DNA from: Bacteroidota bacterium
GTDB lineage: Bacteria > Bacteroidota > Bacteroidia > Bacteroidales > UBA1715
DNA length: 64,000 bases
NCBI GenBank assembly: GCA_009786075.1
Contig: WQTX01000001.1
Coordinates: forward strand, 1,592-65,591
Direction: 5' to 3'
The notes under the pieces were generated by a model. The model had not been told where the DNA came from and did no database searches. It was given only the letters and a program-made list of their open reading frames with translations. The position numbers and the translations under genes are program-made. This document shows, piece by piece, positions 49,401-59,203 of the stretch (positions within the stretch are counted from its first letter, which is position 1; each line of letters begins with the position of its first letter).

Positions 49401-50871
49401 GAAACGCATTTTTTACCGGAAAATCGGTGGAAAACGTTGTGGAAGCAATATAAATATTATCGAGCGTATCGAGCATAATTTCACCCCGTGCACCGTCGCT
49501 GTGATTGTAATACAGGGAATCTCTACCGTAATATTGGTATGAGACTAACCCTCTATCGAAATTCAAACCATCGTTTTCACTACCGCCCATATATGTGGAC
49601 GAAAGCAGTTGCGAACCGTCGGCACTCAGACGAGTTACGAATATATCGAGACCGCTTTCAAAATTAATAACGTGCCCGTAAATTATTGATGTTCCTCCGG
49701 CAAATGTTGGCTGAATGGCATTTCTCACAGGAAAATCGACCGAGCCTGTTGTGCCGAGTATAAGTAATTCATTTTTGGAATTGACAATCAAACTATGCGG
49801 CATTTCGGCGCTTGCACCGCCTATGTAACTCGCATAGAGGCGTCTTGTTCCCGTGGGGTCGTATTTTATAATTCCCACGTCCCACGAACCGCCGCCGTAG
49901 GTTGTTTGCGAAGCTCCTATACTTACCGGATAACCAAAACCTTCGACAATGCCGCCGGAATACACATTATTTTCAAGGTCGTACGTTGCCGTAAATCCCC
50001 AATTGTCGCTTGTGGAGCCTGTGTAAGTCGAAAAAATTAATTCGGGGTCGATGTACAGTGTGTGTTCGGGATTATAATCTCCCACACGGTAGGTCAGTTC
50101 AAAGCGGTGCAAATTGTAGGAACATTCAACCGCAACCGTGTCGTTGCCAATTATTTGATATGCGTATGGTTTTTGTTCAATTACTTCGTTTACCGAAGTT
50201 GTGATAATCAAATTTCCCTTTTGGTCGATTGCCATACGGTTTACGCCATCGTAACGCAGTTTTATTTTACCGGGATTGCCACCCGGACGCACCACAAAAT
50301 CGTATTTCATAGTTCCTCCGGCATCGTATAAATACAAATCGGTGTATCTATAAATTTCGTGGTATTTTATTTTTTTATAACTTACCACATTGCTCGCCCA
50401 TTTTTTGGAATCATTTCCGAGAAAAAAATGTTCCACACCCGGCAATCGTTCATGAGCCGAAACGTGTGTGCGATTGTTCATTCCCTCAAAATACACTTTG
50501 TAAGCATGTGTTTTTTTAGGTTGCGGTTCATCGTCATCGGCGTGGCTGCAAGCGTTATGTGAGTGTTGCGATTTGAGCAATCGCAAATTCAACGGCATGC
50601 CGGTTTTTAAAAATTCCGCTTTTTCTTCCGGCGAAATTTTGATTAGGTCGGTACTATCTGTAAAATGCTTGTGCGCATTATGCGTATCGTAGAAAAAATA
50701 GGTCAAACAATTTTTTTCGGCATACATAAATCCGCCGTACAATTGTGTGCGGTAAAGAACACTCGATTGCCACTGATTTTTATTCTCGGTAAAGTGAATC
50801 ACAGGCATTTGGGCGTGAGCCGAAATAAAGGCGCACGTAAAAATAATGGGGAGTAGCTTTCGTAGATTCAT
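46408..50871 (-). CDS. Large T9SS type-B C-terminal-domain surface protein (SprB-like adhesin)
   Basis: Signal peptide from MNLRKLLPIIF (start moved to 50871). Beta-propeller-like and Ig-like repeat regions. C-terminus FVPTAFTPNNDGVNDIFEIK...FDRWGEKIFE...WDGKYKGKPL. Confidence 0.85.
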   Translation of the reverse strand: MNLRKLLPIIFTCAFISAHAQMPVIHFTENKNQWQSSVLYRTQLYGGFMYAEKNCLTYFFYDTHNAHKHFTDSTDLIKISPEEKAEFLKTGMPLNLRLLKSQHSHNACSHADDDEPQPKKTHAYKVYFEGMNNRTHVSAHERLPGVEHFFLGNDSKKWASNVVSYKKIKYHEIYRYTDLYLYDAGGTMKYDFVVRPGGNPGKIKLRYDGVNRMAIDQKGNLIITTSVNEVIEQKPYAYQIIGNDTVAVECSYNLHRFELTYRVGDYNPEHTLYIDPELIFSTYTGSTSDNWGFTATYDLENNVYSGGIVEGFGYPVSIGASQTTYGGGSWDVGIIKYDPTGTRRLYASYIGGASAEMPHSLIVNSKNELLILGTTGSVDFPVRNAIQPTFAGGTSIIYGHVINFESGLDIFVTRLSADGSQLLSSTYMGGSENDGLNFDRGLVSYQYYGRDSLYYNHSDGARGEIMLDTLDNIYIASTTFSTDFPVKNAFQPVSGGSQDGVIFKLNADMTNLEWSSYIGGESKDAAYSITIDKEGNVFATGGTCSQTMNVPFNGFIPNRIGGTVDAFLIKLDQSGNLLAGTYFGSDRHDQAHFVRCNSLGNVFLFGQTTATGSTLIYNAKFQQPNSGQFLASFSNDLSTLNWSTVFGSGNGTPNITPTAFEVDICNRIYLAGYGREWETDYSIGTYYNEYWKEWMYDNGWYFMQGTKNMFITPDAYQKHTDGKDFYLMVIDDEANEVGYATYFGEIHNYNTCRGSGREHVDGGTARFDKKGNIYQSVCASCGGCNGFPTYPKPGAWSNNNNSRNCNNAVFRFYIGFGLLVADFELPEITCSANELTFIDKSQHLYNNPQLEYEWYVDDSSILSTDEHFTHIFPEPGEYEIKLIVRDVSSCNLVDSISKKLIITEQIAYDVLPAKYICAGETIEIGIPNEYNPNYTYTWKPSEGLSTPDRPQTNATPGETTDYELTVASNWCKTIYTQTVNVFKNDYHILELKVTQNGEERNPVCSGDWYTVTAYTSAPTRRYIWSTSPTFNPVINPDFSQSSITFMPTGKVTYYVRTFSEYCNFQTEAMVEVNVSFNDVKAFGETFICKGDVVEIGVENLYPANSMTYSWSPQHFIVSGVQSATPLVKPGVSTNFVVHARNQDGCVKIDTVHVAVNDLEMLTVVNTPISCFGETDAALEVSHVGGTAPYTYLWNDGSSNPAKQNLGEGVYSITITDGLDCVVTETFEIIEPQPLELKNIAAANVNCENACNGSIQLTIEGGTKPYSVQWSNEQNTQDLYNLCPGIYTAEITDAHNCAAITTQEITITVENKLPLLDATADKYIVYKGQKVQLSALPTPQEGVSYMWTPMIWIENAYSAHATVTPPHSYTYVVHATDSYGCTNTDTVHLQVVDWDCTKEFIFVPTAFTPNNDGVNDIFEIKSGAITELEFAIFDRWGEKIFETTDLHAQWDGKYKGKPLEPQVLVYYIYARCLDNREFRDKGNITIIK

Positions 50872-51090
50872 AACTTTTTGAATAACTGAGTAACTGAATG
50901 ACTGAATAACTGACTGTTTGGTTGCGGAGCTATTAGTCAACCTAACTAAAAAACGTTAAAAATAACACATTTAATCTATTTATGCAAACAATTATTTTAG
51001 ATACTATGGCAACCGCACGAAATTTACCCTCAATTAGTAACAGTTTTTTCACTTTTTCCCAAAAAACCACCAAAAACAAAATCCTTTTAT

Positions 51091-51098
51091 TATATTTG
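51091..51098 (+). promoter_or_regulatory. -7 box TATATTTG preceding the structured RNA candidate
   Basis: Exact TAnnTTTG match. No plus-strand protein gene lies downstream. Confidence 0.4.
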
Positions 51099-51104
51099 CA
51101 CTAA

Positions 51105-51300
51105 TTCCATTTTCAAGAAGTTAAAAACCGGAAGGACATTTTGTAAAAAATAGCGTTTTGCTATGTCCTGGTCATTGGAACGTGAGAAATTTCAAGTACG
51201 CCAAGGTAAGTTGAAAGTCGCAGGAATGCGGATTTACTTATTTGGTGTACAGGTGATTCTCACGACCTCTAAGGCGGATTAAAAGCGCAAGGATTTAGAT
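51105..51300 (+). ncRNA. Candidate structured small RNA of unknown family
   Basis: Helices 51133-51139/51163-51169, 51181-51188/51257-51264, 51196-51211/51236-51250 and 51219-51222/51227-51230, capped by a GGAA tetraloop. Three G-U pairs exist only in plus sense. Confidence 0.4.
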
Positions 51301-51644
51301 AATAGATTGATTATAAGATAGAAAGATAGTTTTTTACAAGTATGCAGTGACAAATGAGTAACAAAACATTCCCTTATTGAGAATTGTGGAGAATTTTGTA
51401 CTGCAAAGATAATCATTTTTCAATTAATACAACAACCGACTACACCAATTTTGAGTTTTCACAGAATAATATTAAAAGTAATAACAGCCTCACAGGAAAA
51501 GACACACAGTTTAATTTACAGCCTCTTGTTCCAATTTTGTAGTCTTTCAAAAACAAATAGGAATTTTCCCGTATCCACTAAAATCCATTCCGTATCAATC
51601 CAAAACCAACAGGATTTTTCAAGTATCAATTACCAAAAATCAAG

Positions 51645-51798
51645 TGTCTAATAGGAATTTTTAGCAGACACCTATTAGACACCAATAAGACACCTATTAT
51701 CTACCGAATAATTCCTATTTCCTCCGAATAATTTTGAATAAATCCTATTAGCTACCTGTTGGCTACCAATTAGACACCGAATGGACACTGATTAGCTA
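51645..51798. repeat. Phased 10-11-bp direct-repeat array (consensus CCTATTAGACA) plus one inverted copy
   Basis: Eleven consecutive units at 51671-51798, ten starting CC and the last starting CT: CCTATTAGACA CCAATAAGACA CCTATTATCTA CCGAATAATT CCTATTTCCT ... CCTATTAGCTA CCTGTTGGCTA CCAATTAGACA CCGAATGGACA CTGATTAGCTA. The inverted unit TGTCTAATAGG lies at 51645-51655. Confidence 0.75.
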
Positions 51799-51871: not shown

Positions 51872-54784
51872 TTACTTAATCAATATTAGCAATTCCTCCG
51901 CCAATTCTCTCGATTCCAACCGCATAATACTCTCCTCCGAACTCCCGTAACTCAAAAGGTTAATATTTCCATACCATACAAGACGATTGTCAATAAGAAC
52001 AAATTTTTGATGAATGTCGCTTTTTTGCACAACCGTAACAATCGATTGTAAATATTCAATACACTCTTTTATCCGCTCCGGTTCTTTATATGATTCCGGC
52101 GGACGAGTAACGATTGTGATTGAAACGCCCATTTTTAACGGCTCTTTCAACCATTCGAGGATTGTGTTTACTCGTTTTCTTTGCAAGAATGGACTGACAA
52201 TCAATATTTCTTTTTTCGCTTCGACAAAATCATTTTTCATTACTTCCGCAAAACTATCGGTGTCATAAATCAAATTGACTTTGTCGGGTTGGTTTTGAGC
52301 TGATAATGTTTTGTAACCTATCTGCGCATAACCGCTAAGGCGTTTGTGGTACATTCGTTCCAAAACCGGAACGTGAATATCCACATAATCGTAAATCATT
52401 ACATCTTTTTTATCGGGATATTCTCGGTGTAATCGTCCGGCATATTGAGCCAATGTACCTTTCCAAGCAATTGGCGAGGCGAGAAACAAGGTGTCTAAAC
52501 GTGGATAGTCAAAACCTTCGCCAACATATTTTCCTGTGGCAATGATAATGAGTTTTTCTTCTTTCGGAATGTTTGCTAACGATTCCATCATTTTGGTTTT
52601 TACTTTTGTAGAATCCGCTCCAACAAGCGTGATGATGTGTGCATCTATTTGATTTTTAAGTAATTCAAATAATCGCGAGACGTGTTCTTTACGTTGAGTG
52701 AGAATGATTGGTGTTCGGTTGTTTGTAACTGCTTCCGTAACATCATTGACAATCTGTTGGTTACGAAATTCGTCTTCGGCAAGAGTAGCGTAGATTTTAG
52801 TAATGTGCCAATCGGTTTCATTTTGCAAAAACGGCTTTTTAAATCCTGTAAAACACGGGATTAAATAGTGTTCAAAATTCCGTTTGCTTGCCTGCGATTT
52901 TGCATCAACAGAGTAGCGAATTGCGCCACACTGCATAAAGGTTATCGGGTGCTGTCCGTCTTGACGGGTGGGTGTTGCCGTCAAACCACAAACATAATGT
53001 GCATTGACCGCTCCAAGAACTTTTTCGTAATTGACAGACGAGGCGTGATGACATTCGTCCACAATTACCATTCCGTAATTTTTTACAATATCATCAACCT
53101 CATTATCACGGATTAAACTCTGAACGAGTGCAATATCTATGATGCCCGATGAAGTATTTTTGCCTGAACCGATTTGTCCAATAAGCGAACGAACCTTTTT
53201 TCTTCCTCGTCTTTTCTCCGCTTCGGGCAAGGTTTCGTTTATTTCGAGGAATTGTCCCAAAGATTTTTTCCATTGGTCAAATAATGTTTGTAAATGAACC
53301 AATATCAAAGTATTGCATTTTCTTTCGGCAATGAGCGATGCGCCGATAACGGTTTTACCGAAGGCGGTTGGAACGGAAAGTATACCGTTTTCGTGTTGGA
53401 GTAACGTATCGGTTGCCGATTGTTGTTCTTCGCGGAGCGTACCTTTAAAATTTACATCAATCTCTTTGCCTTTATTTCGCTTATCGTCAAATTCATAATT
53501 GACATTGGAATTTTCGAGCAAAGCAATAAGTGAAGAACGACAACCACGCGGAATGCCCAAATATTCAGCCGTTTCGTCCAAAGAATAAATAATTCGTGGA
53601 ATACCAAACGTGGACATTCGCATTTTCTGCGTTTTGTAAAATTGTGGATTTGAAAAGGCGGCAAGTCGTTTGATTTTGTTTAAAGCACATTGGCTGACAT
53701 CTTTTTTCAGAATATACAACCTGTTTGCTTCAATAATAATCAGTTTATTGGGAAAATCGTTGTTTTCAAGTTTCGTTTCCGGCTTTTTGTTTTCCCAAGG
53801 TTTTGGAACATCATCATCGTCTATTTCGATATTTCCAAGTTCTCCCAAACCATTGCCGATACATAATTTGTCGAGCCATTCATCTATTTCTGCCGAAGAA
53901 ATTTTCTTAATGGAAGATAAATACGCCCATTGGTCGGGGTAAGATTGGAAATTTTCGTCAATAAATTCACTATTTCCGTTTTTTCGTGCTCCACCTTGCA
54001 AAGGCAAAGCAATCAAATTGCCAAATCCGCCTTTTGGCATAAAATCCTGATTGGGGAACATTCGGTCGTAGGACGAAAATTTTATTTCGTGCCTAACGGA
54101 CATCGCTTTTGTCAGAATTGCATTCCCGAATTTTCGTGCGGACATTGCCAAAATCGGCTCGCTAAAAAACAACCAAGCGTGTGCGCCGTTTCCGGAACGA
54201 GAACGCTCAATTGCCACCGGAATATTCAACTCTTTACAAACAGAACGAAAGGCGGAAATGTCTTTTTGCCATTGTTCTTCATCAAAATCAATAGCAAGAA
54301 ACAAGCAAGTTTCGTCTGACAAGAGAGCGTAAACCCCGACAATTCCTGTTCCGTTTTCGTCTTTATTTCGTAAATGGAAATTGATAGTTTCCGCTGTCAA
54401 AGGCAAAAATTCTCGATTGGTACAATCTTTACATTTGGTGTTTGTTCTGTTGCAAAGTCCTCTAACCCACTCGTTTTTACAGGCAGGAATATAATAACTG
54501 CTTTCGTGCTTTCTGCTGTAACAGCGTTTGGCGTAAACATCTGTTCTTCCACGAAACAACGACATAAACAATTCTATTTTTTCTTCGGGTGTGCTGTGTT
54601 TGGTTATAGACGATTCCGTTTCCTGTATGGTATTTTCTTCTTCAACGGGAACGATATTTTGCTTTTTGGCTATTTCTTCAACCGACAACCCCAATATTTT
54701 CCGTAATTTCTCATTTTCTGCACGAAGAAAATAAACTTCCGATTCAAGTTCTTCGATTCGTTTGTGGAGAGTTGTTTTGGGCAT
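51872..54784 (-). CDS. AEP/PrimPol - SF2 (DEAD/DEAH, ResIII-like) helicase - HKD/PLD nuclease fusion protein
   Basis: AEP motifs LAIDFDE, SGNGAHAWLFF and GFGNLIALPLQG. Helicase motifs PTAFGKTVIG, VIVDECHH, GLTATPTR and QYAGRLHR. C-terminal HQKFVLIDNRLVWYGNINL (HxK). N-terminal coiled coil. Confidence 0.8.
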   Translation of the reverse strand: MPKTTLHKRIEELESEVYFLRAENEKLRKILGLSVEEIAKKQNIVPVEEENTIQETESSITKHSTPEEKIELFMSLFRGRTDVYAKRCYSRKHESSYYIPACKNEWVRGLCNRTNTKCKDCTNREFLPLTAETINFHLRNKDENGTGIVGVYALLSDETCLFLAIDFDEEQWQKDISAFRSVCKELNIPVAIERSRSGNGAHAWLFFSEPILAMSARKFGNAILTKAMSVRHEIKFSSYDRMFPNQDFMPKGGFGNLIALPLQGGARKNGNSEFIDENFQSYPDQWAYLSSIKKISSAEIDEWLDKLCIGNGLGELGNIEIDDDDVPKPWENKKPETKLENNDFPNKLIIIEANRLYILKKDVSQCALNKIKRLAAFSNPQFYKTQKMRMSTFGIPRIIYSLDETAEYLGIPRGCRSSLIALLENSNVNYEFDDKRNKGKEIDVNFKGTLREEQQSATDTLLQHENGILSVPTAFGKTVIGASLIAERKCNTLILVHLQTLFDQWKKSLGQFLEINETLPEAEKRRGRKKVRSLIGQIGSGKNTSSGIIDIALVQSLIRDNEVDDIVKNYGMVIVDECHHASSVNYEKVLGAVNAHYVCGLTATPTRQDGQHPITFMQCGAIRYSVDAKSQASKRNFEHYLIPCFTGFKKPFLQNETDWHITKIYATLAEDEFRNQQIVNDVTEAVTNNRTPIILTQRKEHVSRLFELLKNQIDAHIITLVGADSTKVKTKMMESLANIPKEEKLIIIATGKYVGEGFDYPRLDTLFLASPIAWKGTLAQYAGRLHREYPDKKDVMIYDYVDIHVPVLERMYHKRLSGYAQIGYKTLSAQNQPDKVNLIYDTDSFAEVMKNDFVEAKKEILIVSPFLQRKRVNTILEWLKEPLKMGVSITIVTRPPESYKEPERIKECIEYLQSIVTVVQKSDIHQKFVLIDNRLVWYGNINLLSYGSSEESIMRLESRELAEELLILIK

Positions 54785-54934: not shown

Positions 54935-57900
54935 CTATTTTTTCACTACACTTATTCGTTTACCATTTATTTGTAAAAAATACACACCATTGGCGTAATT
55001 CGATAAATCAACTTGTGTACCGAATGTTGTAATCAGCAATGCGCCAAATGAATTATATACTTTGATTTCGCTTGGCTCGCTTATGTTTACTATGCCGGTG
55101 GTTGGATTAGGGTAAATTATAAGTGAACTTTCATCAATGGTTTCAATATCGGTTGTTTTCTCTTTGAAAGTTACTACAATTTTGTGATTTTCTGTAACAG
55201 GTGGAAAAGTATAATATCCGTCCAATTGAGCTATTGAATTTATAAGATAATCATTATCAACTTTTATGTAATTTATTTCATAACCATCATTGGGCGTAAA
55301 ATAAAATGTTTGACTTTTTCCTTCATTAACACGAACGTTTCCGCTCGGTTCTATGCTACCGTTTTCGTCTGACGATGCAACAATTGTGTAATAATTTGCC
55401 GGATTATTAATTAGTTTGAAAGTTACTGATATTTCATAATCCTTTTCAACTTTCGGGAAAGTATAACGTCCGTTTGCTTTGGCAGTTGGGTTTATAACAC
55501 CATCAATTTTCACTTGGTCTATTTCATAGCCATCATTTGGCGTAAAAATAAATTCTGGACTACTACCTTTATTAACAGGAACATTTCCGCTTGGTTCTAT
55601 GCTACCGTTTGGGTCTATATTGCCATTTTCGCCTGCCGTAGCAATAATGCTGTAAGTTGTAATTCCGCCTTCTGCGGGAGTTATAAAATCGCCTGTGAAA
55701 ACGGTTAGCATATAGCCGTCGACATTGTAAGGCGTGAGCGAATAATAATATCGAGTATTTGCCGTCAAATTCGGAACAGTGTAGAATAATGTCGATTTAA
55801 GGAAAGGATTGCCGTCAGCATCTAAATTCAATTCTGCAACTTTATTTATATGATTTTCATCGCTGTAAATATTTAATTCGTAATTAATTGCATTGTTAAT
55901 TTTGGGAAAAGTAACATTGGCGGAATTTGGCGTAGGAACAACCTGTACGGCACACTGATAATTTGTAAATACTTTCCAATAAAGTCTTGTTTGGTAATCG
56001 GAAAGATAATTGCAATTAATATATACAGGAATATTTGGGGAAACATTGTTAAAAGTAGAGGATTGTAGCGTTGGCGGTGTAGTGGCGTTGCAAATTATTT
56101 GACTTAATCCTGTGCAACCTGAAAAAGCATAGTATGGAATTGTAGTTACTTTATTTCCTATCGTTATAGTTTCAAGTGTCGTCATTCCCGAAAAGGAATC
56201 ATCGCCACATTGCCCTAAATTTCTACCTAAATGTAAATTTTTTACAGGACAATTTCCAAAAACACCATTATCGCCAGCAGTGCAATAAAGGTATAAAATT
56301 TCAGTACCATCTTGTATATTAATATTTTGTAGTTGTGTGCAATTGTCAAATGCTCGCCAACCAATTACAGAGATTGTAGAAGGAATAATTAATTGTGTTA
56401 AACTACTACAACCTCTAAACGCATCACTGCCGATTGAAGTAATTGAACTTGGGAAATTAATTGTTTGTAAACTTGAACAACCATAAAAGCAAGAAGAAGG
56501 AATTTCAGTAATTAAATCTCCTTCAAATGTTACGGAAGTTAATCTTGTACAATTTTTGAATGGTTGATAATAAGTTGGCAATGTTGTAACTAAACTGCCT
56601 ATTGTTACAGTTTCAAGTGTTGTCATTCCTGAAAACGAACCTGCACCGCATTGTCCTAAATTTCTCCCTAAATGCAAATTTTTCACGGGGCAATTTCCAA
56701 AAACACCATTGTCGCCACTAACACAATAAAGATATAAAATTTCGCTACCATCCTGTATATTAACATTCTGCAATTGAGTACAGTTGTCAAATGCACGCGA
56801 ACCAATTTCAGTGATTGTAGAAGGAATTGTTAATTGTGTTAAACTATTACAACTTCTGAAAGCATTATTGCCGATTGAAGTAATTGAACTTGGAAAATTA
56901 ATTGCTTGCAAACTCGAACAACCATAAAAACAAGAAGAAGGAATTTCGGCAATTAAATTTCCTTCAAATGCTACAGAAGCTAATCCTGTACAATTTCTAA
57001 ATGAATAAGTTGGCAATGTTGTAACTAAACTGCCAATGGTTAAGATTTTAAGTGTTGTTATCCCTGAAAAGGAGTCATCTCCGCATTGTCCTAAATTTCT
57101 TCCTAAATATAAACTTTTCACGGGACAATTACCAAAAACGCCATTGTCGCCACTAACACAATAAAGATATAAAATTTCGCTACCATCCTGTATGTTAACA
57201 TTCTGCAATTGAGTACAGTTGTCAAATGCACGCGAACCAATTGTTGAGACAGTAGAAGATATAGTTACATTGTTCAAATTAGTATAATCTCTAAAAGCAT
57301 TATTTGGAATAGAAGTTACTCCACTACGAATAATAAGTGTTCTTATTTCGGAGCGCCTATCTGTATAATCATTTGAAAAAGTCGGTTTATATTTATCAAT
57401 TTCTGACTGACATAAAGCACCGCTACCACTAATAATAAGTGTGCCACCAATTAATGTGGCAGTAACAGAACAACTTGGTTTTCCATTTCCCCAAGAAATA
57501 TTAGATGCTGCACTATATAAATTGTCTGCATCTCCTAATAAATTGTATATCGAAATACCACAACGTATTCCATAGTAAAAAGTCAGAGGCAATGTCATAG
57601 GTCCGGCTGCGGCTGAAAGTAACGCATTACCACAATGAATAAAAGTACTTGTTATTGAAAGTGTCATCTTAGCTCCATACCAAAGCACCTTAAATTCATC
57701 AGGCGCAAAGTTATCTATAATAATATCTCTAAGGAATTTTTCTCCAAATCCCAACCCGAAACTTGGAAGAGTTGGATTGTCAAACATACCATTCACTAAG
57801 CGACTTAAATTCTCAGGGTTATAAATAGTTTTTTCAACACATTCAGCTAACGTGCTCAAAGCAAAATCCCACGTGTATTCAACAAAACTACTACCCAAAG

Positions 57901-58855
57901 AAGCAAAATCCATTTCAACTCCTTCTATGCTGTTATATACGCCATTGTATGAAAGTGCTGCAACATTACAAGTATTTCCTGCGTAGCCGTCAAAAATAAA
58001 AGTTACGCTATCAGAAAAAATTCTATCAGGCAACCCGTTATTATTGTATTCAACTATCATTTTGATTGCATCTTTTTCATCATCATAAATAGTAAGTCGC
58101 TTGGGTAAATTCTGATTATTTTCTTGATATTCAAAATAATAGACAGTGCCATATAAGTCCATAATAACAGCATCTAAGGTATCGCCCAAATCTTCTTCAA
58201 TAAGAAGATATTGTGGCATGGATTTAAAATTACGCCACACATTTTCTGATTTATAGGCTGTTATTGCCTCTTTGGGAGTAGCAAGATAGATAGACGGAAC
58301 TGTTATGCCACTAAAAACATTAAGGTTATTTATATTTTGTGGCGTAGTTGCCATATTATAAACGGCAGTCAAAGCGGCACAATTTCCAAATGCTTCTTTT
58401 TCTATGGTATCAACACTTTGGGGAATTGTAATAGTAGGCAAAGAAGTACAATTATAAAATGATTGTTCTCCAATTATAGTAACAGTATTGGGAATTGTTG
58501 TTGCTTGCAAGTTTCTACAATTCTTAAACGCATAATTTCCAATATTCGTTACGCCGTCTTCTATAACAACGGTTTCTATGGTATTAAGGTTAGTAATGCG
58601 CCAAGGGGCAACACCGTCAATCGCAGTATCCCAAAAATCAGACATATCTCCACTACCATTAATATACAGAATTTTGCCATCTATATATGCTCTAACATCG
58701 TTTTCCCCTCTGGTATTTTCATTGTCAGAAATAACCCAAGGGCTAATTTTTGTTCCGTTTCCTTCCCACGCCATTACATTGTTTGTAAAGGCAAGCAAAA
58801 CAAATAGCATTGCTATTGTTAAAAGATTTTTTGTTTTTGTAAATTTCTTATTCAT
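54935..58855 (-). CDS. BspA-like leucine-rich-repeat surface protein with Ig-like repeats and a T9SS type-A C-terminal domain
   Basis: Repeated IGxxAFxxCxxLxxIxIPxSVTxI LRR units, two GENGxIxPxG...FTPNDGYEI domains, and the C-terminus IYPNPTTGIVNISEPSEIKVYNSFGALL...GVYFLQINGK. Confidence 0.85.
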   Translation of the reverse strand: MNKKFTKTKNLLTIAMLFVLLAFTNNVMAWEGNGTKISPWVISDNENTRGENDVRAYIDGKILYINGSGDMSDFWDTAIDGVAPWRITNLNTIETVVIEDGVTNIGNYAFKNCRNLQATTIPNTVTIIGEQSFYNCTSLPTITIPQSVDTIEKEAFGNCAALTAVYNMATTPQNINNLNVFSGITVPSIYLATPKEAITAYKSENVWRNFKSMPQYLLIEEDLGDTLDAVIMDLYGTVYYFEYQENNQNLPKRLTIYDDEKDAIKMIVEYNNNGLPDRIFSDSVTFIFDGYAGNTCNVAALSYNGVYNSIEGVEMDFASLGSSFVEYTWDFALSTLAECVEKTIYNPENLSRLVNGMFDNPTLPSFGLGFGEKFLRDIIIDNFAPDEFKVLWYGAKMTLSITSTFIHCGNALLSAAAGPMTLPLTFYYGIRCGISIYNLLGDADNLYSAASNISWGNGKPSCSVTATLIGGTLIISGSGALCQSEIDKYKPTFSNDYTDRRSEIRTLIIRSGVTSIPNNAFRDYTNLNNVTISSTVSTIGSRAFDNCTQLQNVNIQDGSEILYLYCVSGDNGVFGNCPVKSLYLGRNLGQCGDDSFSGITTLKILTIGSLVTTLPTYSFRNCTGLASVAFEGNLIAEIPSSCFYGCSSLQAINFPSSITSIGNNAFRSCNSLTQLTIPSTITEIGSRAFDNCTQLQNVNIQDGSEILYLYCVSGDNGVFGNCPVKNLHLGRNLGQCGAGSFSGMTTLETVTIGSLVTTLPTYYQPFKNCTRLTSVTFEGDLITEIPSSCFYGCSSLQTINFPSSITSIGSDAFRGCSSLTQLIIPSTISVIGWRAFDNCTQLQNINIQDGTEILYLYCTAGDNGVFGNCPVKNLHLGRNLGQCGDDSFSGMTTLETITIGNKVTTIPYYAFSGCTGLSQIICNATTPPTLQSSTFNNVSPNIPVYINCNYLSDYQTRLYWKVFTNYQCAVQVVPTPNSANVTFPKINNAINYELNIYSDENHINKVAELNLDADGNPFLKSTLFYTVPNLTANTRYYYSLTPYNVDGYMLTVFTGDFITPAEGGITTYSIIATAGENGNIDPNGSIEPSGNVPVNKGSSPEFIFTPNDGYEIDQVKIDGVINPTAKANGRYTFPKVEKDYEISVTFKLINNPANYYTIVASSDENGSIEPSGNVRVNEGKSQTFYFTPNDGYEINYIKVDNDYLINSIAQLDGYYTFPPVTENHKIVVTFKEKTTDIETIDESSLIIYPNPTTGIVNISEPSEIKVYNSFGALLITTFGTQVDLSNYANGVYFLQINGKRISVVKK
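56100..57300 (-). repeat. Near-identical tandem duplications (about 435-441 bp, ~2.7 copies) inside the LRR gene; boundaries approximate
   Basis: GCAATTGAGTACAGTTGTCAAATGCACGCGAACCAAT recurs at 56770 and 57205, with a diverged third copy near 56330. The protein unit IGSRAFDNCTQLQNVNIQDGSEILYLYC... repeats. Confidence 0.8.
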
Positions 58856-58898: not shown

Positions 58899-59074
58899 AT
58901 AAAAATAGCGTGAAACAACCTGTCTATTTGCAGGTTTCCACGCCTATACTCCGGCAAGTTGCTCCACGCCGTAATACACGGCGTTTCGCTAACTATTCTT
59001 GGAGTATAGCCCATAAACGGGGCAAATGTGGAAAATGCAAATACTTAGAATAAAAAGCTATACGCTATTTTTAT
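58899..59074. other. 176-nt nested-helix element (structured RNA or DNA cruciform candidate)
   Basis: Five nested perfect helices: 58899-58911/59062-59074 (13 bp), 58925-58932/59036-59043 (8), 58935-58941/59028-59034 (7), 58944-58952/59001-59009 (9), 58966-58972/58978-58984 (7). They are separated by asymmetric loops. Confidence 0.5.
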
Positions 59075-59203
59075 ATATGTATCATACAGTGCTTGTTGGC
59101 ACTATTTTGGTTTTTTGTTTTATGATTGAGGCAAAGCTATTAAAATATTCTGAATAATTTGCGAATTGTTTTTGAAAATTGGGACAACACCACAATATTA
59201 TTG

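Follow-up and report, generated by a model that had tools for sequence, protein, structure and literature searches.

A structured element at positions 51091-51280 on the plus strand of a 64,000-nucleotide stretch of DNA (the window) is probably an orphaned, 3'-truncated member of a family of structured 5' leader RNAs, which Bacteroidota carry in many copies with promoters of their own. The window comes from an uncultured Bacteroidales bacterium of the termite gut, for which a genome assembly of 3.18 Mb in 176 contigs is available. An earlier note on this DNA had taken the element for a free-standing small RNA, and had proposed that it may serve as template, primer or antitoxin for the product of a convergent neighbouring gene, a fusion of an AEP primase-polymerase with a helicase and a PLD nuclease. 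The supposed small RNA is better described as a leader family member that has lost its 3' end, and other loci of the AEP gene speak against the partnership. That the stretch contains a real, strand-specific structured RNA element is confirmed, and we have little doubt that it belongs to a multicopy leader-RNA family of Bacteroidota. For the family as a whole, the arrangement of complementary segments in front of a U-tract makes it somewhat probable that its members are transcription attenuators before genes for exported proteins.

The element and its copies

The element begins with a match to the Bacteroidota -7 promoter box TAnnTTTG (TATATTTG, 51091-51098, on the plus strand like all other parts of the element). 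The box is a putative promoter and would place the transcription start a few bases further 3', near 51105. A blastn alignment with a second copy defines the upstream promoter region of the leader module (51034-51090). Downstream of the box, a 5' hairpin occupies 51133-51169, with AGGACAT (51133-51139) paired to ATGTCCT (51163-51169) and a TAGC/GCTA stem nested inside (51151-51154 with 51160-51163). Alignments with paralogous copies identify the inner stem AUAGC/GCUAU (about 51150-51164) as a family-conserved helix, P2, and the outer GGACAU/AUGUCC pairs of the hairpin as a peculiarity of the window copy.

The main structural feature is a long rod at 51173-51274, which is defined by its fold, by covariation, by the pairing of its arms and by the match to a covariance model (R1, see below). 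Its closing helix P3 (51173-51179 with 51268-51274) is followed by the outer 8-bp helix P4 (CGTGAGAA / TTCTCACG, 51181-51188 with 51257-51264), by helices P5 and P6 (about 51194-51212 with 51234-51253), and by helix P7 with the apex CGCA-GGAA-UGCG and its GGAA cap (51219-51222 with 51227-51230, apex 51219-51230). All of these helices are seen in the fold, and P3, P4 and P7 also in the covariation. Comparison with paralogues further reveals conserved internal-loop letters, namely ACCUC at 51265-51269 and a GGGU that is replaced by AGGU in this copy. The last bases of the element, GCGGATT (51274-51280), align with the first bases of the family tail, the expression platform.

The promoter box, the 7-bp hairpin with its nested stem, the rod and the GGAA-capped apex are thus all found where the earlier note had placed them, and the roughly 200 nucleotides after the box are indeed free of genes, with no open reading frame of 40 or more codons inside 51105-51278. 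Two descriptions need amendment. The rod had been delimited as 51181-51264; it is present, but it extends further on both sides, as helix P3 had been missed. The GNRA cap exists in the window copy, but it is not a feature of the family, since a GNRA tetraloop was found by eye in only 5 of 50 aligned members.

Folding is stronger than expected by chance and depends on the strand. The plus strand of 51100-51300 has a minimum free energy of -60.1 kcal/mol, compared to a mean of -41.4 kcal/mol for dinucleotide shuffles (z -4.6, none of 200 shuffles as good), and the minus strand one of -47.1 kcal/mol (z -3.8). Of the 53 family copies, 51 fold better as the sense than as the antisense strand, with a mean difference of 10 kcal/mol (Wilcoxon p = 3e-10), and the sense folds contain 7.0 G-U pairs against 3.1. 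The view that selection acts on the RNA in the plus sense, which had been based on G-U pairs in the window copy, is therefore sustained.

The family became apparent from searches in the same genome. A DNA search of the assembly with the element gave five further matches, and blastn together with nhmmer extended the set to about 30 copies. R1, built from 26 of them, detects at least 53 copies at E <=0.01 (150 of about 2,600 candidates scored). Against R1, the window sequence 51165-51296 (plus strand) scores 68 bits (E = 3e-11) as one of the 26 seed sequences, and nhmmer and blastn, which are independent of R1, also match the window copy to other copies. R1 matches 9 of 21 close genomes, with 20 and 6 copies in two genomes of the same genus, and 12 and 5 in another genus. 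In a sample across the order, there are matches in 114 of 301 genomes and 86 of 209 genera, complete genomes included, with scores of up to 119 bits. In a sample across the phylum, 34 of 301 genomes have matches. Other orders of the class carry 1-5 copies per genome with scores of up to 95 bits, and in one of these distant copies, promoter, rod, tail and U-tract are found as in the copies of this genome.

The family looks undescribed, two literature candidates not having been compared by sequence. In a cmscan search with Rfam 15, at the gathering score and with E up to 10, no family matched the element in the window. Seven typical copies and three copies from other orders were likewise unmatched over the element by Rfam 15, the few weak matches falling outside it. 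A literature search found no paper that describes the leader family. The structured Rfp small RNAs of Flavobacterium psychrophilum (PMC9723704) and the 'palindromic' Bacteroidetes candidates HMP2_4205 and HMP2_1032 (PMC8040213) could not be checked against it without their sequences.

Covariation supports selection for the rod at the RNA level. An alignment of 50 sequences, from this genome and from foreign ones, has standard pairs in 98.7% of the cells of helices P3, P4 and P7, compared to 67% in shuffles, and 327 cells are changed on both sides (93 in shuffles). Covariation reaches a score of 0.93, where shuffles give 0.30 and slid partners no more than 0.14. In an alignment-free test, the copy's own 3' arm was the best partner of the 5' arm in 52 of 52 copies (-48 vs -23 kcal/mol).

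Similar multicopy patterns could be produced by selfish or structural DNA repeats, such as MITE-like elements or recombination sites, in which the hairpin acts as DNA. The copy number is high and differs between relatives (0, 6, 20, 53), two copies are broken at the same base beside the end of an insertion sequence, and direct repeats of the promoter part flank a 14.5-kb variable island, all of which would fit. We nevertheless regard this explanation as very improbable. The G-U pairs and the fold energy are strand-specific, with C-A mismatches on the other strand; compensatory changes preserve every helix, although paralogous copies share only 65-76% identity; the copies keep a fixed polarity and spacing relative to promoters and downstream genes; and blastn searches of plasmid and phage collections gave no match.

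Alternative pairings and the proposed attenuator

Comparison of the paralogues shows a shared order of parts: a TAnnTTTG promoter, a variable 5' region, the rod with helices P3-P7, a short tail and a run of U residues. The rod comprises about 100-130 nucleotides, its 5' arm being segment 1 and its 3' arm segment 2. The tail (segment 3) has 15-30 nucleotides and mimics the inner part of the 5' arm. The promoter box lies 55-124 nucleotides upstream of the rod in 33 of 53 copies. In many copies, the 5' region contains an invariant hairpin, AGUGCCAACAAGCACU, followed by UUUAUGAUAC (for example on contig C74, C74:8044-8110, minus strand), and a second hairpin, AUAGCGUUUUGCUAU, is also found. The window copy does not have the AGUGCCAACAAGCACU-UUUAUGAUAC module, so that the 5' region appears to be modular within the family. 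An AUG within UUUAUGAUAC opens reading frames of only 5-8 codons with variable ends. Attenuation by a leader peptide was considered and is not supported, given the shortness and differing ends of these frames and the absence of the module from the window copy and from the class of copies before small HTH genes described next.

Intact copies precede genes. In about 42 of 53 copies, a gene on the same strand follows 45-200 nucleotides after the U-tract, and its product carries a signal peptide or a lipoprotein signal. The genes examined encode a variety of unrelated products: BspA-type LRR proteins with a type IX sorting domain, a WG-repeat protein, a Peptidase_S74 protein with a Por_Secre_tail domain, a Fib_succ_major protein, and beta-helix and orphan lipoproteins. 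In nine more copies, only 0-2 nucleotides separate the U-tract from the ATG of a gene whose small product has about 75-100 amino acids (MQENxxIHIGKxI...); of two such proteins scanned, one gave a weak XRE-like HTH match. The small HTH genes are in turn followed by genes for membrane or exported proteins. In this class (for example C80:3018-3180, plus strand; C42:19441-19605, plus strand; C38:6750-6904, minus strand), no local hairpin forms within the tail, which is a nearly perfect complement of the rod's 3' arm. A downstream gene is lacking in just two copies, namely the window copy and one on contig C79.

The tail can pair with part of the rod. It is complementary to the apex-proximal part of the 3' arm, and its duplex with the 3' arm of the same copy averages -20.2 kcal/mol, compared to -13.0 kcal/mol with the arms of other copies. 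When the 3' half is folded alone, 45 of 50 copies form, by an automatic criterion, a hairpin of 3' arm and tail, with -20 to -46 kcal/mol and with its helix closed next to the U-tract. The same hairpin is seen by eye in the remaining five, and GGGU and ACCU are conserved letters at its tip. A local hairpin within the tail, by comparison, is missing from about half of the copies. The helix between segments 2 and 3 was also examined on an alignment that had not been fitted to it. Its 11 basal pairs are 81% paired, compared to at most 52% with slid partners, and there are 48 double-change cells, compared to 19 in shuffles. At pair 152-243, for example, 33 sequences have UA and 11 have CG. The rod and this hairpin are mutually exclusive, because both use segment 2. 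A pseudoknot, in which the tail pairs with the 3' arm while the outer rod is kept, was rejected on the reasoning that a linker of 0-3 nucleotides cannot span a helix of about 25 bp. The two features expected of an attenuator, exclusive pairings and one hairpin that abuts the U-tract, are thus present in the family and missing from the truncated window copy.

These pairings suggest how an attenuator might work. Pairing of segments 1 and 2 in the rod would sequester segment 2, and the rod would then be an antiterminator. If segment 1 were unavailable, segment 2 could pair with the tail, and the resulting hairpin, which ends exactly at the U-tract, would be an intrinsic terminator. In copies before small HTH genes, this hairpin would also bury the region just before the start codon. 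In most copies, the rod is favoured by about 25 kcal/mol and comes first in transcription, so that read-through would be the default. To switch the gene off, by a logic of the TRAP type, a factor would have to bind the 5' arm while the RNA is nascent. Some copies may deviate from this scheme, having a local terminator hairpin or being nearly bistable.

The latter situation is found in the window itself, in an intact second family member on the minus strand (58903-59139; promoter TAGCTTTG at 59139-59132, hairpin AGUGCCAACAAGCACU, and rod, tail and U-tract at 59051-58903). A gene for a BspA-LRR protein of the type IX secretion class (54935-58855, minus strand) follows about 45 nucleotides downstream. 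The two forms of this family member are nearly isoenergetic, with -51.5 kcal/mol for the terminator form, which uses the 3' arm of P4, and -49.1 kcal/mol for the rod form. A third member is located on the same contig, about 1.5 kb past the end of the window (C1:67139-67232).

Several points count against attenuation. The rod is far more stable than the terminator form, so that switching would depend on a kinetic trap or on a factor. A local terminator hairpin compatible with the rod is present in roughly half of the copies, in which termination would be constitutive, as in small RNAs. The covariation alignment was fitted to model R1, which was itself built from copies of this genome, and the promoter count is limited to exact matches of the pattern (33 of 53 copies). 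A search for RNA-seq runs containing the window gave none, and the RNA runs that match copies from complete genomes have an even, genome-like depth and give contigs of 160 kb, and thus look DNA-like. Transcription, termination, read-through and a trans-acting factor are all inferred from sequence. Finally, the window copy might be transcribed and act otherwise, for example by antisense read-through towards the 3' end of the AEP gene.

The local terminators bring up the alternative that the copies are independent small RNAs of about 170-200 nucleotides, which end at their own terminators and act in trans by pairing with distant targets or titrating them. The window copy would then be a small-RNA gene minus its terminator, and the downstream genes would be bystanders or would be expressed separately. 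Each copy has its own promoter and U-tract, termination at the rod-compatible local hairpins would be constitutive in about half of them, and there is a precedent for multicopy small RNAs in Bacteroides, FopS (PMC11697453). It is difficult to reconcile with this view that a same-strand gene follows at 0-200 nucleotides in about 51 of 53 copies, and that the ATG comes directly after the U-tract in nine. In the few gaps between terminator and ATG that were inspected by eye, there was no canonical TAnnTTTG box. Moreover, nearly the whole RNA is taken up by the rod, which leaves no conserved single-stranded seed, and the complementarity between tail and 3' arm would have no role. On balance, we consider independent small RNAs improbable.

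A second alternative gives the rod a role after transcription, as a 5' stabiliser that shields mRNAs for exported proteins against decay dependent on the 5' end, or as a processing element for RNase III. Pairing of the 3' arm with the tail would then occur only after processing, and termination would not be the regulated step. Stabilisers in the form of 5' stem-loops are established, for example in the ompA leader, and mRNAs for envelope proteins carry the closed rod, which is very stable (-44 to -62 kcal/mol), at their 5' end. A stabiliser, however, would have no need of a conserved tail resembling the 5' arm, or of a U-tract placed exactly behind the alternative hairpin, and RNase III, by cutting the rod, would take away the segment with which the tail pairs. 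This role appears less probable still than that of small RNAs, and attenuation remains the reading that we prefer for the family.

Truncation, the flanking island and the AEP gene

The window copy is, with hardly any doubt, truncated. After GCGGATT, intact copies continue with GTAAATCCGC-T6 (GCGGATT-GTAA-ATCCGC-TTTTTT), whereas the window copy and the copy on contig C79 continue with AAAAGCGCAAG. Beyond position 51280, the window copy has neither the remainder of the tail nor a U-tract nor a cargo gene. No plus-strand open reading frame lies 3' of it, where the AEP gene comes next in convergent orientation.

What follows instead is shared with the other truncated copy. Segment A (51281-51526) is 90% identical to C79:5753-5984. 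It is closed by a remnant of an IS256-like terminal repeat, identified by sequence match (GACACACAGTTTAATTTACAGCCTC, 51502-51526). This repeat, GACACAGTTTAATTTAC, is the terminal repeat of an IS256-like element that adjoins segments A and B, and stands alone at 51502-51526. Segment B (51557-51790), which contains phased CCTATTAGACA-like repeats, is 85% identical to C79:6032-6266, where it is inverted. It lies outside the RNA family and outside the conserved neighbourhood of the AEP gene. Segments A and B were considered as a widespread mobile element, an idea that we discarded, as they occur only twice, both times in this genome. The RNA bodies of the two truncated copies are only about 65% identical, compared to 90% identity from 51281 to about 51526. 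A later rearrangement, at the same point of the terminator in both, has thus removed tail, U-tract and cargo gene from the window copy and left its promoter and rod intact. DNA runs from termite gut show a repeat boundary at 51274. The window copy is probably a relic without function.

The truncated copy stands at the edge of a variable region. According to blastn, 51034-51129, which covers the promoter and the start of the leader, is about 97% identical, in direct orientation, to C1:67139-67232, 14.5 kb downstream, and the rest of these two leaders is only about 70% identical. The direct repeats of about 95 nucleotides bracket a variable conflict island with AEP, LRR, AlbA_2, helicase and Abi genes. 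Their similarity suggests gene conversion or, alternatively, a recombination substrate for gain and loss of the island. In a genome of the same genus, the orthologue of the flanking adhesin gene is present and the leader and the island are absent beside it; the ancestral cargo was not recovered.

Two further observations concern this region. Short tracts similar to 50878-50923 match at least 15 places in genomes of the same genus and also accumulate in contigs of termite-gut metagenomes, where depth peaks at 50734-50900. Within segment A, a TAtcTTTG box on the minus strand (51404-51411), recognised by its match to the consensus, could drive leftward transcription, which would run antisense to the truncated leader, towards the adhesin gene.

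The AEP gene itself (51872-54784, minus strand) encodes, according to its domain assignment, a fusion of an AEP-TOTE primase-polymerase, a superfamily 2 helicase and a PLD nuclease, and has thousands of homologues in several phyla. An RNA partner for such a protein, in the manner of retrons or DRT systems, would be suggested by adjacency and convergent orientation in this one window. The comparison of loci makes this idea hardly credible. When 22 loci of AEP homologues, flanks of up to 4 kb included, were searched with R1, no RNA was detected. The genome itself has a single AEP-TOTE gene (Pfam PF22548) and at least 53 copies of the RNA. Among 20 relatives searched with PF22548 and R1, the RNA is found in eight, none of which has the AEP gene, and the sole relative with the AEP gene has no RNA, so that presence of the two is disjoint and they co-occur in none of the 20. 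The 3' flanks of six AEP homologues do not align with the window flank, and in the window, about 590 bp of unrelated sequence (which includes segments A and B) separates the truncated copy from the gene. The element is thus not conserved at homologous loci, and its family is unrelated to the neighbouring gene, an outcome that the earlier note had itself named as one that would speak against its proposal. It is very probable that there is no linkage and that the adjacency is coincidental.

Known leader RNAs and control of the cell surface

The proposed attenuator resembles several well-studied leaders. In the trp leader of Bacillus subtilis, which is controlled by TRAP, in riboswitch platforms and in the T-box, there are likewise three segments, the middle one of which pairs with either neighbour, and the downstream alternative is likewise a hairpin with a U-tract in the 5' leader of the regulated gene. 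The TRAP system is closest in its logic, as there too the antiterminator is the default, and termination requires that the 5' strand is occupied. In contrast to all of these, the antiterminator of the present family would be a long closed rod of about 45-55 pairs, and attenuation is a prediction from the sequence, for which any sensor domain, ligand or binding protein would be hypothetical. The trp leader, moreover, controls one metabolic operon, whereas at least 50 copies per genome of the present RNA stand before unrelated genes for exported proteins, many of them with an extra local terminator.

In its multicopy nature and in the kind of genes that follow, the family is more similar to the c-di-GMP-I and c-di-GMP-II riboswitches, for example of Clostridioides and Geobacter, which are also multicopy leaders, in their case of genes for adhesins, motility and the surface. 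In both, an RNA defines a regulon of genes for surface and secreted proteins, and the riboswitches often act via intrinsic terminators. The present RNA, however, matches none of those Rfam models, and a rod with few conserved unpaired nucleotides is unlike an aptamer for a small molecule; any ligand would be hypothetical.

Among the RNAs of Bacteroidales, FopS and GibS of Bacteroides thetaiotaomicron come to mind. They are multicopy RNAs of 65-70 nucleotides with a single-stranded 5' seed and a terminator; FopS acts in trans on susC mRNAs, and has been deposited in Rfam (PMC11697453). Paralogous Bacteroidales RNAs with TAnnTTTG promoters, terminators and a link to outer-membrane proteins are found in both cases. 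Unlike FopS, the present RNAs have about 170-250 nucleotides, are almost fully paired, are located in cis before genes and have no match in Rfam. Identity with FopS or GibS was rejected for these differences in size and architecture and for the lack of an Rfam match.

To our knowledge, retron msr-msd and DRT non-coding RNAs co-occur with the polymerase gene at every locus. The likeness to them, a structured RNA beside the polymerase gene of a conflict system, is confined to this window; unlike them, the present RNA was found at no sampled locus of an AEP homologue and has 53 unlinked copies. For the AEP-helicase-PLD (TOTE) gene, the analogy with retrons and DRT systems is not worth pursuing on the present evidence. 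For annotators, the window illustrates that broken leader copies are to be expected in variable islands, and that they should not be taken for island-specific RNAs.

The finding of wider interest is an abundant leader RNA that is absent from Rfam 15. In many Bacteroidales, a genome has it before dozens of genes for secreted and surface proteins, and other Bacteroidota have fewer copies. As far as we know, the post-initiation control of the Bacteroidota cell surface is poorly understood. Such control bears on gut colonisation, type IX secretion and the interaction with the host. We tentatively raise the possibility, at present doubtful, of a phylum-wide modular riboregulator, in which one trans-acting factor, either an RNA-binding protein or a signal of envelope or secretion stress, would read the 5' arms of at least 50 leaders and thereby gate, in a coordinated manner, the transcription of a rapidly evolving set of genes for surface proteins, type IX secretion and lipoproteins. 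The cassettes of promoter and leader would be shuffled before new accessory genes, and would serve as break or recombination points of islands like that of the AEP gene. The leader family would define a regulon that is invisible to protein-centred annotation, and, if true, an RNA-defined 'surfaceome regulon'.

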